Assembly (NCBI GenBank): GCA_964016885.1
Contig: OZ024740.1
Location: 48,050,001-48,114,000, forward strand
Direction: 5' to 3'
DNA length: 64,000 bases
Source of the DNA: Eledone cirrhosa
Taxonomy: Eukaryota
Part shown: positions 35,961-49,500 of the stretch, in pieces
Layout of the letters: each line of letters opens with the position of its first letter
Position numbering within the stretch: the first letter of the stretch is position 1
Program-made: the position numbers and the translations under genes
Notes under the pieces: generated by a model
Told to the model about the DNA's origin: nothing
The model's database searches: none
Seen by the model: only the letters and a program-made list of their open reading frames with translations

Positions 35961-36130
35961 TATATATATATTTATATATATATATATATATTTTTATATG
36001 CAAAAGTTTTATTTTAAATTGTTGGGTTACAACAAGTAAATATTTTATAACTGATATAAAGCACTCGACAAGTTTTTGGAGTAGATATACGATATTAAAC
36101 AAATGGAAACTATATTTATAAAACCATATT

Positions 36131-36196
36131 TATTTCATTATACATATTTCGGCGATACCATATTAAAAATATGGCATGCCTTCGTCAGATAAAATA
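36131..36196 (-). ncRNA. Type I hammerhead ribozyme motif (intact core)
   Basis: TATTTTAT-CTGACGA-aGGC-ATGCCATATT-ttt-AATATGGTAT-cGCC-GAAA-TATGTAT-A-ATGAAATA; 8-bp stem I; AUA site. Confidence 0.75.
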
Positions 36197-36691
36197 CAAT
36201 ATATAAACAGTTTTATAAATAATTTTGACGTACCATAAATATGAGCGACCATTATGTACCTCCCCCTATATAATTATTATTTTGTCTCCCTCTTTCTTCC
36301 CCCCCCCCCCATCTCTATCTCTCTGTTTTCTCTTTATCTCCATTTTTTATTTCTCTCCGTCTCCTCTCTAACTGTCTTTAACACTATAACTAAATAATTA
36401 CCGTACTCCCTCCCTCTTAAATCTCTCAATTTGTATGATGAATTATTATTATTCATCTGTTGCCTTCGATTGCCTTTCTTTTTTCACCTCCTCCATATTT
36501 CTCTCTCCCCTATCTCTCGCTATTTCCTTCTGTTTTTCTTTACATACATTTCTTCTTTTTCTCCGTCTTTCTTTATAACTGTGCTTAACACTAAATATTT
36601 ATAAACACTTCACTACCAAACTAGCTTCCTACATAATGGTCGCTTATATTTATGGTACATCAAAATTATTTATAAAACTGTTTATATATTG

Positions 36692-36757
36692 TATTTTATG
36701 TGACGAAGGCATGCCATATTTTTAATATGGTATCCCCGAAATATGTATAATGAAATA
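36692..36757 (+). ncRNA. Hammerhead motif, mutated copy
   Basis: Inverted twin of 36131-36196 with GTGACGA (C3G) and a stem II mismatch. Confidence 0.6.
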
Positions 36758-37213
36758 AATATGGTTTTATAAATATAGTTTCCATTTGTTTAATATCGTA
36801 TTTATTTTTATATATATTTATATATATATATATTTATATATATATATTTATATATATATATATTTATATATATATATTTATATATATATATTTATATTTA
36901 TATATATATATATATATATATATATATTTATATATATATATATATATATTTATATATATATATATATATATATATTTATATATATATATATATATTTATA
37001 TATATATATATTTATATATATTTATATATATATATATTTATATATATATATATATATATTTATATATTTATATATATATATATTTATATATATATATATA
37101 TATTTATTTATATATATATATATATATATATATATATATATATTTATATATATTTATATATATATATATTTATATATATTTATATATATATATATATATA
37201 TATATATATATAT

Positions 37214-37410
37214 ATAGGAACCAGTAAGACCCCGACAGCTGAGCTCAAGCCGTTTCGACGGCTAATTCTGGACGTCCAGAATTAGCCGTCGAAACGGCTT
37301 GAGCTCAGCTGTCGGGGTCTTACTGGTTCCTATTACCCACTCTACTACCTCAAGTATTGAGTACTTTGGTGCGTTATGGTCCACCTGGTTCCTTACCACA
37401 TTTCCTTCGT
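37214..37410 (+). mobile_element. 120-bp perfect palindrome plus 77-bp single-copy tail between (TA)n arrays
   Basis: Arms 37214-37273 and 37274-37333 with no spacer (centre GAC|GTC); homologous pieces at ~13030-13072 and ~61420-61510. Confidence 0.75.
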
Positions 37411-37867
37411 TATATATATATATATATATATATATATATATTTATATATATATTTATATATATATTTATATATATATTTATATATATATTTATATATATA
37501 TTTATATATATATTTATATATATATTTATATATATATTTATATATATATATATATATATATATATATTTATATATATATTTATATATATATTTATATATA
37601 TATTTATATATATATATATATATATATATATATTTATATATATATTTATATATATATATATATATATTTATATATATATATATATATTTATATATATATT
37701 TATATATATATTTATATATATATATATATATATTTATATATATATATATATATTTATATATATATTTATATATATATTTATATATATATATATATATATT
37801 TATATATATATATATATATATATTTATATATATATTTATATATATATATATATATATTTATATATAT

Positions 37868-45315: not shown

Positions 45316-47554
45316 ATATATATTTATATATATATATATACATATATATTTATATATATTTATATATATATATATATATTTATATATATTTATATATATA
45401 TATTTATTTATATATATATATATATATATATATATTTATATATATATATATATATATATATATTTATATATATATATATATATATATTTATATATATATA
45501 TTTATATATATATATATTTATATATATATATATATATTTATATATATATATTTATATATATATATTTATATATATATATATTTATATATATATATATTTA
45601 TATATATATATATATTTATATATATATATATTTATATATATATATATATTTATATATATATATATATTTATATATATATATTTATATATATATATATATT
45701 TATATATATATATATTTATATATATATATATTTATATATATATATATATATATATATTTATATATATATATATTTATATATATATATATTTTTATATATA
45801 TATTTATATATATATATTTTTATATATATATATATTTATATATATATATATTTATATATATATATATATATATATTTATATATATTTATATATATATATA
45901 TATATATTTATATATATATATATTTATATATATATATATATATATATTTATATATATATATATATATATATATATATTTATATATATTTATATATATATA
46001 TATTTATATATATATATATTTATATATATATATATACATATATATTTATATATATTTATATATATATATATATATTTATATATATTTATATATATATATT
46101 TATTTATATATATATATATATATATATTTATATATATATATATATATATATATATTTATATATATATATATATATATATATATATATTTATATATATATA
46201 TATTTATATATATATATATATATTTATATATATATATTTATATATATATATATTTATATATATATATATATATTTATATATATATATTTATATATATATA
46301 TTTATATATATATATATTTATATATATATATATTTATATATATATATTTATATATATATATATTTATATATATATATATATTTATATATATATATATATT
46401 TATATATATATATTTATATATATATATATATTTATATATATATATATTTATATATATATATATTTATATATATATATATATATATATATATATATATATA
46501 TATTTATATATATATATATTTATATATATATATATTTTTATATATATATTTATATATATATATTTTTATATATATATATTTTTATATATATATATATTTA
46601 TATATATATATATTTATATATATATATATATATATATATTTATATATATTTATATATATATATATATATATTTATATATATTTATATATATATATATATA
46701 TATATTTATATATATTTATATATATATATATATATATTTATATATATTTATATATATATATATATATATATTTATATATATATATATATATATATATATT
46801 TATATATATTTATATATATATATATTTATATATATATATATATATATATTTATATATATTTATATATATATATATATATATTTATATATATATATATTTA
46901 TATATATATATATATATATATTTATATATATATATATATATATATATATTTATATATATATATATATATATATATATTTATATATATTTATATATATATA
47001 TATTTATATATATATATATATATATATTTATATATATATATATTTTTATATATATATATATTTATATATATATATATATATATATATATATATATATTTA
47101 TATATATATATTTATATATATTTATATATATATATATATATATATATATATATATATATATATATATATTTATATATATTTATATATATATATATATATA
47201 TTTATATATTTATATATATTTATATATATATATATTTATATATATATATATATATTTATATATATATATATTTATATATATATTTATTTATATATATATA
47301 TATTTATATATATATATATATTTATATATATATATATATTTATTTATATATATATATTTATTTATATATATATATTTATTTATATATATATATTTATTTA
47401 TATATATATATATATTTATATAAATATATTTATATATATATATTTATATATTTATATTTATATTTATTATATATATATATTTATTTATATATATATTTAT
47501 ATATTTATATATATATATATTTATATAAATATATTTATATTATATATATTTATA
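45315..47554. repeat. 2.2-kb interrupted (TA)n array running into the gap
   Basis: Seen directly. Confidence 0.95.
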
Positions 47555-47754
47555 NNNNNNNNNNNNNNNNNNNNNNNNNNNNNNNNNNNNNNNNNNNNNN
47601 NNNNNNNNNNNNNNNNNNNNNNNNNNNNNNNNNNNNNNNNNNNNNNNNNNNNNNNNNNNNNNNNNNNNNNNNNNNNNNNNNNNNNNNNNNNNNNNNNNNN
47701 NNNNNNNNNNNNNNNNNNNNNNNNNNNNNNNNNNNNNNNNNNNNNNNNNNNNNN
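47555..47754. other. Assembly gap (200 N)
   Basis: Run of N. Confidence 1.
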
Positions 47755-48344
47755 CACGTTTATGGTATAAAAGAGGTCGTAGACTAATGTTCTCTTAGGT
47801 GGTGCATAGAGACGTTCTCTGGCAATGAACGAAAAAATCAAGATAATAAGTCATATGTGGAACGTGGAGAACAAACGTGGTTCTGTCTTTGCGCGTAATT
47901 GTTTTTCACCGTTCCTATTAATGTCGTATTATTCGTTTTTTCCCGTTATTTGCCAGCGAACGTTTCCACGAACCAAAGTATCGTCTTCCTGTCTTCCTCC
48001 GGTTGAAATATCCAGTTCTGCGTTTACAGATTGACTTTGTTAGTTTCAGAAGATCCCGTTAAGGGTGAAAGCAGCGATTCTTTGCTTAAACTTTAATCTG
48101 TTATTTTAATAAATATTTGCTCTACGGTTCTTATATATTTGATATATATTTTCCTTATCGAGCCCTCTTTGGATTTTCGTCTTCAATTTTATTATTATTA
48201 CTATATTTATATATATATATATATATATATTTATATATTTATATATATATTTATATATATATTTATATATATATTTATATATATATATATATATATATAT
48301 ATATATATATATATATATATATATATATATACATATATATATTT

Positions 48345-48990
48345 ATAATAACTAGAAATTGATTAACATATAAATATACATGAATAATCACAGGAGAAAA
48401 TTTTTACACCCGTGTAACTACGCATAGCTAGTTTGGGTAATAATTAAATTTATACCTTTAAGTATGATTAACCTTCCTTGTATATATCCCATTAAAGAAA
48501 TATATTTCACCAATTAATCAGATGGTAAGTCACGGAAAGTGGATGTTATTGGATTGTCAACAAGGAAGAATAATAATGTCCAGCTATCCATCCTTACACA
48601 ACGAGTTCAAATCCACATCTGGCCGCTACCACGTGTTGCGTCTACACATGCTAGCAGTTTCGTTTCAGTGGCGTGAATAGGTATTCGACAACTAGAAATA
48701 GCAGTCAAATTCTCTTCAACAGAAATAGCTCTACAATTAAGGAGCCGTATATATATATCTATATCCAAAATTAAGATAAATTAAATGAATTTAATCTAAA
48801 TCGAAATTGTGGGTGTCATGTCATAATGGCATGCGCCATATCGCCTGGAAATAAGCTCAAAGATAAATCCGAGCATTTCATAATAACTAGAAATTGATTA
48901 ACATATAAATATACATGAATAATCACAGGAGATAATTTTTACACGCGTGTAACCACGCATAGCTAGTTTGGGTAATAATTAAATTTAATT
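48345..48990. mobile_element. (TA)n-flanked cassette with ~105-bp terminal direct repeats (535-bp period)
   Basis: ATAATAACTAGAAATTGATTAAC...GGGTAATAATTAAATTTA at ~48345 and ~48880. Confidence 0.7.
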
Positions 48991-49374
48991 ATTAAATATA
49001 ACCCTCCCCAAGTATAACAATATATATTTATTTATATATATATATTGATTTATATATATATATATATATATATATATATTTTATTTATATATATATATAT
49101 TTATTTATTTATATATATATATATATATATATATACATACATATATATATATATATTTATATATATATATATATTTATTTATATATATATATATATTTAT
49201 TTATATATATATATATATTTATTTATATATATATATATATTTATTTATATATATATATATATTTATTTATATATATATATTTATTTATATATATATATAT
49301 ATATATTTATTTATATATATATATATATATATTTATATATATATATATATATTTATTTATATATATATATATGC

Positions 49375-49500
49375 AAATAGCAAACAGAAATAACAAGCGA
49401 ACGACACAGTACAACGAAGAAATATATTAGTTTTGCGCTTGATATAGTAGGAAAAGTCTTAACGTTTCGGACTCTAGTCCTTTATCAGAAAATAGAATGA
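49375..49500 (-). mobile_element. Microsatellite-abutting cassette with near-canonical hammerhead
   Basis: Minus strand CTGATAA-a-GGAC-taga-GTCC-GAAACGTTA (G8 to A); homologous to 13438-13560. Confidence 0.6.

Follow-up and report, generated by a model that had tools for sequence, protein, structure and literature searches.

The 64,000-nt window analysed here (contig OZ024740.1 of assembly GCA_964016885.1, positions 48,050,001 to 48,114,000 of the forward strand) comes from the genome of Eledone cirrhosa and contains, between 36.0 and 49.9 kb, ten non-repetitive islands interleaved with (TA)n arrays. These islands are very probably the hammerhead-bearing 3' ends of eight distinct coding families of Penelope-like elements (PLEs), together with two non-coding tandem units. 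Eight of the ten are 5'-truncated and often inverted PLE 3' ends, six of them Hydra-type and two Neptune-type by motif, and the chain is an insertion hotspot rather than a functional array, with no joint function. The system as a whole, consisting of hammerhead-bearing, (TA)n-targeting PLEs and their retrozyme derivatives, is largely known. Its unusual part is one family, named G, which is very abundant and has a conserved fold whose core bears a change that is expected to cripple the ribozyme. A sequence-only reading had earlier described the same stretch as a chain of mostly non-coding ribozyme cassettes sharing one (TA)n niche and mobilized by a GIY-YIG-bearing PLE like the one at 40.5 kb. 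The features are listed below; numbers with the prefix L designate genomic loci elsewhere in the 3.0-Gb genome, fetched for comparison, and those with the prefix C followed by a position in Mb designate contigs, the window itself being on C1.

36000–36798, both strands: island A, Hydra-type PLE 3' end, with its parent open reading frame (ORF) in L169/L170
36258–36798, + strand: sense arm of A, hammerhead with C3G at 36700
36000–36258, − strand: inverted arm of A and a tail of about 88 nt, core intact (C3 36188, cleavage 36139)
37219–37409, + strand: island B, palindrome plus tail, a Hydra-type PLE stub inverted within stem II; it retains just the 3' half of a U3-A8 hammerhead (37274+), the complete form of which is found in L088/L095/L176
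37871–38612, − strand: island C, retrozyme-like non-coding tandem repeat present as 1.5 copies of its 466-bp unit and followed by an inverted piece of 39 nt; its minimal type I hammerhead is intact (C3 38130, cleavage 38100, −)
38609–39500, both strands: island C2, 5'-inverted 3' end of a separate Hydra-type PLE, with an endonuclease (EN) C-terminus at 39329–39243 (−) and a hammerhead relic without GAAA at 39376 (+)
39992–40913, − strand: island D, 5'-truncated Neptune-type PLE, with a GIY-YIG C-terminus at 40470–40913 and an intact hammerhead (C3 40185, cleavage 40151, −)
41524–42084, both strands: island E, palindrome plus 91-nt tail, Hydra-type PLE 3' end with its parent in L171/L172/L179; hammerhead intact in the + arm (C3 41893, cleavage 41937), U16.1C in the − arm (C3 41620)
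44566–45314, − strand: island F, final 750 nt of the 3' untranslated region (UTR, about 2.3 kb) of a Hydra-type PLE with its parent in L246–L248; hammerhead core nucleotides conserved, A10.1-A11.1 mismatch (C3 44654, cleavage 44614, −)
47555–47754: assembly gap, 200 N within the largest TA array
47755–48201, + strand: island G, 3' end of a Hydra-type PLE with its parent in L244/L245, inverted on its 5' side and ending in a tail; hammerhead-like fold with A at position 4 and U10.1-U11.1 (C3 48047, cleavage position 48087, +)
48348–48987, − strand: island H, non-coding tandem repeat present as 1.2 copies of its 535-bp unit; U3-A8 hammerhead with 8–9 bp in stem I and at most 9 bp in stem III (position 3 at 48560, cleavage 48481)
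49001–49020, + strand: stub of about 20 nt adjoining a TA junction, which by eye appears to resemble the extreme 3' end of family D
49373–49940, − strand: island I, 3' end of an old (70–84% identity) Neptune-type PLE; hammerhead with G8A in the window copy (C3 49488, −), canonical in most relatives
36809–37216, 37411–37868, 39503–39990, 40914–41520, 42088–44565, 45342–47554, 48202–48347 and 49020–49372: (TA)n arrays with periodic TTT interruptions

The hammerhead folds, the starting point of the sequence-only reading, are real. A type I descriptor that tolerates one additional nucleotide behind A9 and accepts a minimal stem III gave four strict matches in the whole window, all of them within the 6,493 bp of islands (C3 36188−, 38130−, 40185− and 41893+), and no match in the other 50,159 bp; three of 1,000 dinucleotide shuffles of the islands gave a match, one each. 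A narrower descriptor, permitting neither of these features, returned one site only, and Rfam reported one hammerhead among 36 listed matches for the window, HH9 at 38077–38148− in island C (37.6 bits, gathering score 52, E 6.2e-6). All eight sites that had been listed exist, with the mutations described at 36700+ (C3G), 41620− (U16.1C) and 49488− (G8A). Of the five cores described as intact, four stand; the fifth, at 44654−, fails the strict descriptor because of its A10.1-A11.1 mismatch, which is the majority state of family F. The cleavage sites of the eight lie 48–229 nt from a TA junction, in agreement with the range of about 45–230 bp first given, and four further islands carry hammerhead folds or parts of them (H 48560−, G 48047+, B 37274+ and C2 39376+).

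Base-pairing in the stems is kept among related copies, as had been claimed. The proportion of paired cells was 93.1% in 27 sequences of the C group and 93.8% in 29 of the A group, values exceeded by none of the 500 shuffles or the slid controls; the count of pairs changed on both sides was reached by 461 of 500 shuffles for the C group and by 97 of 500 for the A group, in rows that were picked by a core-demanding pattern and in which the stem changes go back to a few events at the level of subfamilies. Two free stem II positions were complementary in 100 of the 100 matches listed, out of 7,819 exact C motifs. Single-strand folding z-scores were −4.2 for E, −3.0 for A, −2.2 for F, −0.3 for G, +0.1 for I and −0.6 for the parent of B; the minimum-energy folds of F, G and H did not yield the hammerhead fold, and a MAFFT alignment of nine hammerheads across families was uninformative. 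A type I hammerhead core, three stems, an NUH site and covarying stems are present in A, C, D and E and, with a U3-A8 core, in the parent of B; H, also U3-A8, has the core, the stems and the site, its copies being too little diverged to show covariation. The cassettes had been said to share no stem sequence, which does not hold: the D and E hammerheads have 15 nt in common from the core into stem II (window 40171–40185 −, 41606–41620 −), possibly through module exchange between a Neptune-type and a Hydra-type element, or by chance, and those of E and H have 10 nt in common across GAAA into stem III. More compact U3-A8 hammerheads occur in other families (L203:117–168, L035:1362–1412 and L176:9762–9813), and about two dozen stem-defined groups with a canonical fold were seen in 1.0 Mb of fetched loci, some of which are duplicates or chance matches. 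A role of the chain as a functional multi-ribozyme transcript was rejected in view of its mixed orientations and several broken cores.

The Penelope-like origin suggested earlier is supported by coding parents for eight islands, and this corrects two other claims: for each of the islands A, B, C2, D, E, F, G and I a separate coding family exists elsewhere in the genome, only C and H are non-coding tandem units, and mobilization of the whole set by an element like that at 40.5 kb is not supported. Family D, located by protein search, has an intact ORF of 1,267 aa in a tandem unit of 4,286 bp, and its endonuclease is 100% identical over 136 aa in all 150 scored matches. The C-terminal piece in island D matched the Pfam GIY-YIG family at 25 bits (cut-off 22.6), and the closest named relative of the cluster's one long ORF is an Octopus vulgaris protein (70% identity). 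A Cx4CxxC linker precedes the C-terminal GIY-YIG domain of D, and DKS replaces DKG. The D ORF also contains, at residues ~260–480 in L161, a low-complexity insert rich in Asn, His and Thr before the reverse transcriptase (RT), with frames intact. In family I, 5 of 25 loci have a decayed RT upstream in the same orientation, and the Neptune-type linker, with decayed motifs, is found in L109 and L121; the Neptune-type label of D and I is given by motif and may cover Nematis as well.

The parents of A, E, F and G encode an RT and then an EN, in that order, with RWK or RWR, DKT, YRDD and CxCx5C motifs, and B (in L250) and C2 continue upstream into endonucleases with CxCx5C, so that RWK/RWR and DKT are found in A, E, F and G, and CxCx5C in all six Hydra-type families (A, B, C2, E, F and G). 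The four parents are only 34–56% identical to one another and therefore represent separate families; between D and the Hydra-type parents, no protein similarity was detectable at E 1e-3. The A parent is shared by L169 and L170 over 3,619 bp at 97.5% identity, from RT through hammerhead, and unit lengths reach from 3.2 to 4.1 kb (G, E). A linked PLE ORF was found for 43 of 54 copies of D, 13 of 42 of E, 12 of 41 of F and 6 of 41 of G, and the linkage filter missed family A (0/40) owing to a (TA)6 tract within its UTR; copies of B were found as bystanders in loci fetched for other families. Partial-tandem pseudo-LTRs (long terminal repeats), inverted truncated copies and an optional tail, all structural traits of PLEs, were seen. 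Two candidates were set aside: an antisense frame of 138–171 aa upstream of F, dropped as a gene, the real ORF lying 1.6 kb further up, and a 3.9-kb F "tandem" at C3:362.0 Mb, which is F within a host repeat and not an element unit.

The families are multi-copy, and their shared (TA)n niche is borne out by their insertion sites. Among free element ends, 349 of 422 had (TA)4 within 10 nt, compared with 10 of 120 ends of short interspersed elements (SINEs) in these loci and with 520 of 20,000 positions drawn at random; free ends exclude the window's own copies and 168 ends that continue into the family's own sequence. By Hydra-type family, the TA-adjoining ends number 65/71 for A, 35/37 for B, 3/3 for C2, 31/37 for E, 37/42 for F and 45/51 for G, while the old family I has (TA)4 at 8 of 16 free ends, or 14 of 16 if any alternating run is counted. 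Two alternative 3' ends, one short and one with a tail extending ~58–135 nt further, exist in eight families (for C2 and I a single end was scored), and the short end of family D sits just inside the ORF start of the next unit. Several tails open with a short alternating A/T word, which makes the junction between element and target ambiguous; microhomology priming at the tails is possible, unlike what has been reported for the Poseidon element PAc. The 3' UTRs of A (L169:5298) and D (window 40135–40146) hold (TA)6 tracts that could seed later insertions. Palindromic, spaced-inverted and partial-tandem shapes had been described as distinct cassette architectures. The shapes exist, and they are by-products of single insertions rather than designs: head-to-head units showed 60 distinct spans in 63 cases, and palindromes are therefore built anew at each insertion, although the spans of family A cluster at 351–375 bp in 9 of 14 units. 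At 38575–38612, the 5' ends of C and C2 meet head to head with no TA between them, by a template switch or a deletion at insertion.

The two remaining islands belong to tandem units of 466 bp (C) and 535 bp (H), in which the longest stop-free frames are 60 and 70 codons. Each unit carries one type I hammerhead, and both families, non-coding and tandem, are retrozyme-like in structure. The exact C motif occurs 7,819 times in the genome, in arrays of up to 23 kb; in four loci counted, 49, 19, 18 and 8 motifs follow one another at ~466-bp spacing. H has 226 exact motif matches, mostly in one or two units, with two consecutive hammerhead-bearing units at 535-bp spacing at C1:238.03 Mb. A linked PLE ORF was found for one of 159 C copies, which is the window's own C-C2 junction, and for none of 25 H copies. 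The two cleanest TA-flanked C arrays have TA at both ends and differ from each other by 2.4%, and their inverted arms differ by 0.05% and 0.76%, similar to units within one arm; other inter-arm distances (4–13%) were inflated by windows crossing inversion points and were set aside. L139, L055, L171 and L250 hold a tandem family that is sister to C, with 70–78% identity in patches; its stems I and II are fully covaried, with the same stem III and a U10.1-U11.1 mismatch, and none of 30 copies was linked to an ORF. In contigs of two other organisms, a 495/496-nt record doubles back at low depth, as a tandem array and a circle would do alike, and it was not used as evidence.

Several observations weigh against assigning the islands to coding PLE families with two non-coding units beside them. 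The fetched A, E, F and G parents carry stops or frameshifts, those of B and C2 are known from the endonuclease part alone (that of B from four copies), and the full-length D protein matched no Pfam family, although its C-terminal piece scored as GIY-YIG. Clades were assigned by motif. Because the loci were chosen as top matches to the copies in the window, the TA rates hold for young, intact ends. As the linkage filter missed A, it could in principle also hide a coding parent of C or H, for which no 3' end shared with any coding family was found.

About ten independent insertions into one (TA)n tract most likely produced the chain. The element-encoded GIY-YIG endonuclease would nick TA DNA, and the RT would copy just the last few hundred bases of the element RNA, by target-primed reverse transcription from two internal start sites past the hammerhead that would give either the short end or the tail, as described for PAc (PMC11167929). 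Early termination and 5' inversion, both known from the literature, would generate the palindromic, inverted and partial-tandem stubs, nearly every one of which keeps its hammerhead because it lies 48–229 nt from the end, and repeated insertion into a long TA tract would yield a chain. C and H would be moved in trans by PLE proteins, as is suggested by their same footprint of TA flanks, tail and inversion, and the C arrays would be copied in one event from circular or multimeric RNA. The minimal hammerheads of A, C, D, E and I are predicted to cleave weakly, as dimers or with the help of protein; those of B and H, with a long stem III, could cleave as monomers, and those of G and C2 are probably inactive. 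The window copies are dead stubs, with the possible exception of C and H.

An alternative closer to the sequence-only reading, in which the majority of islands would be independent retrozyme-like families without coding capacity, mobilized throughout by D-like elements, is very unlikely and already largely refuted: C and H are indeed such units, the fetched copies of A, E, F and G are mostly short stubs that have no ORF nearby, and the clustered inversion spans of A would suit a fixed design, but eight islands have coding parents, spans vary from copy to copy, and D lacks detectable protein similarity to the Hydra-type parents. It is also improbable, if somewhat less so, that the (TA)n flanks were made or lengthened at insertion through slippage of a telomerase-related PLE RT, with arrays growing and attracting further insertions. 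Nearly all free ends of nine young families adjoin TA, several tails begin with A/T words, and A and D carry (TA)6 tracts of their own, all in favour of slippage; against this, the TTT interruptions in the window lie on the + strand regardless of the orientation of the neighbouring element, the TA arrays at 30.5 and 32.4 kb have an identical pattern beside RTE-like elements, arrays elsewhere have other types of interruption, and (TA)n is described as a target in the literature (PMC8557442). Between 32396 and 49372, nearly all of these TTT interruptions are on the + strand, apart from one AAA patch at ~43460–43640; the seven arrays found at other loci, in a scan that split long arrays into pieces of ~100 nt, show TG, CT or AA interruptions. 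Very long and one-sidedly interrupted TA arrays, with a 200-N gap that leaves the true length of the largest one uncertain, could raise the suspicion of an assembly artefact of low-complexity sequence, but many other loci have TA tracts in which these families occur together, contigs from independent runs contain the C unit with its TA junctions, and every island has private substitutions, which makes an artefact the least credible of these explanations.

The long C arrays may, with a lower probability than copying from RNA, have arisen without any RNA circle, if solo terminal repeats of PLEs were amplified locally at the DNA level through unequal crossover or slippage, a process discussed in 10.64898/2026.07.22.740005. 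In one C array, a G8A variant is present in 6 of 19 motifs and recurs at a spacing of 3–4 units, suggesting block duplication, and divergence within the longest arrays reaches 1.4–1.8%. In many C arrays, in contrast, arms of several units flank a single inversion point and TA lies at each end, the dispersal of C over many contigs requires retrotransposition, and no coding parent bearing the C terminal repeat was found. One-event copying of C arrays from a circle or multimer is likely, with local amplification probably adding to the longest of them.

The G pattern was found at 18,681 places in the genome, with A4 in all 100 matches listed; a looser pattern with U4 gave 150 matches, about what point mutation would yield. 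Relative to the window copy, the fold region differs at 18 of 1,485 positions (1.2%) and the sequence just upstream at 269 of 5,129 (5.2%), in 33 alignments of which three came from pattern-picked loci. Two bystander copies show 20 of 159 (L038) and 12 of 160 (L180) differences upstream, and both have 0/45 in the fold. The 29 nt past the fold are equally conserved (6/955), so the constraint may be on the priming region and not on the fold. G lacks the U at position 4 of the CUGA turn, and is filed as hammerhead-like, not as a member, because of this A4 core and because in a mutagenesis study all changes of the turn other than a C3-G8 swap gave low activity (PMC9901934). A search for hammerhead "U4A" found no paper; other notations would be missed, and the supplements of PMC8557442, with hammerheads given per family, could bear on the matter. 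Family G shows that a PLE can spread widely despite a core predicted to be crippled, and may be an in vivo counterpart of the dispensable hammerhead of PAc. Tentatively, and with considerable doubt, it may be proposed that the G fold, unchanged in subfamilies diverged by 8–13% just upstream, is still under selection as a non-catalytic signal for the PLE protein or as a new core variant that needs this protein for cleavage, forming part of a natural allelic series, and that the 466-bp retrozyme is PLE-inserted, with arrays of up to ~23 kb each copied in one rolling-circle event.

Much of this system is already in print, including TA-targeting Hydra elements with hammerheads, tails, inversions, U3-A8 cores and PLE-derived retrozymes. 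For Hydra elements, (TA)n is the described insertion site, hammerheads are universal, and RWK, DKT in place of DKG, and a CxCx5C linker are the diagnostic motifs (PMC8557442). The six families described here resemble them in RWK-like, DKT and CxCx5C motifs, C-terminal GIY-YIG, 3' hammerhead, (TA)n, tails and inverted truncated copies (PMC8557442); tails and inverted copies are in print (PMC8557442; PMC3846280). They differ in that six divergent families share one tract and in their units of 3.2–4.1 kb (G, E), as against "generally <3 kb" (PMC8557442). Hydra hammerheads are reported as canonical and universal (PMC8557442), the canonical form being a reported trait and not part of the protein-based definition of the clade, whereas here the cores are canonical in A, E and F, with a deviating A-A mismatch at 10.1/11.1 in F, and deviate in B (U3-A8), G (A4) and C2 (relic). 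Neptune elements have a CX2-5CxxC linker and an EN of the CCHH type (PMC8557442); D and I share with them the Cx4CxxC linker before a C-terminal GIY-YIG and a microsatellite bias, D also has the CCHH-type EN, and D differs by DKS for DKG and by its Asn/His/Thr-rich insert before the RT, similar to N-rich inserts described in rotifer elements (PMC3846280).

C and H resemble non-LTR retrozymes, whose units are non-coding, have a GC content of <45%, bear a single type I hammerhead and are arranged in tandem as anything between dimers and ~50-mers (PMC7229834; 10.64898/2026.07.22.740005). Their lengths exceed the 150–450 bp of PMC7229834 and fall within the 51–972 bp of 10.64898/2026.07.22.740005. 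The complete PLE footprint of C and H, with TA at either end, a tail and one inversion point, is not described in the available text of these two sources, and no parent terminal repeat was found for C and H. A PLE origin of retrozymes has been published (10.64898/2026.07.22.740005), where one of nine Xenopus retrozyme dimers cleaved; no cephalopod is mentioned in the available text of PMC7229834, and a search for "hammerhead ribozyme" and "octopus" gave, among the papers listed, nothing on cephalopod ribozymes by title or abstract start. For O. vulgaris, 31 recently active Penelope-like families have been tabulated (PMC13282606). The folds resemble minimal PLE hammerheads in a palindromic short stem III, an extra nucleotide after A9 and high family diversity (PMC4209133; PMC3088659). 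Such hammerheads cleave weakly, as dimers, U3-A8 is covariant in PLEs, with ~1,300 copies in Schistosoma (PMC4209133), and the U10.1-U11.1 mismatch is known (PMC3088659). At position 4, U4C is the only change mentioned in the available main text of PMC3088659, in contrast to the A4 that is fixed in family G, with its more than 18,000 copies. Insertion of PAc in vitro can proceed without the hammerhead, which itself depends on the PAc protein (PMC11167929). PAc also resembles the present families in having two internal RT start sites, which explain a short end and a tail, in AT-rich cleavage, and in a terminal repeat that includes the ORF start, as is true of D, but it belongs to another clade, and the tails here measure ~58–135 nt as against 30–40 bp (PMC11167929).

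E. cirrhosa thus offers one genome with many recently active PLE families, among which D, with its intact 1,267-aa ORF and identical copies, is suited to in vitro studies of a clade that targets microsatellites; so far, reconstitution is reported for a Poseidon element only (PMC11167929). The PLE footprint of C and H gives direct genomic support for PLE mobilization, previously argued from co-occurrence and sequence similarity. Successful families with altered cores make the function of hammerheads in PLEs testable and, if the G fold is indeed selected, canonical, U3-A8, A-A and relic hammerheads in one genome would amount to a natural allelic series on their role in PLEs.

Elsewhere in the window, a 4.3-kb tandem array at 15746–20083 has units of 41 and 76 bp and strong GC and AT skew. 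Three copies of a long interspersed element (LINE), which we take to be RTE-like, lie at 28499–32094 and 33786–35959 and carry an RT and a C-terminal Cys-rich motif. Two of them stand head to head around the TA array at 30543–30695, and the third stops at the left edge of the PLE cluster; Pfam RVT_1 was found in the two copies scanned.

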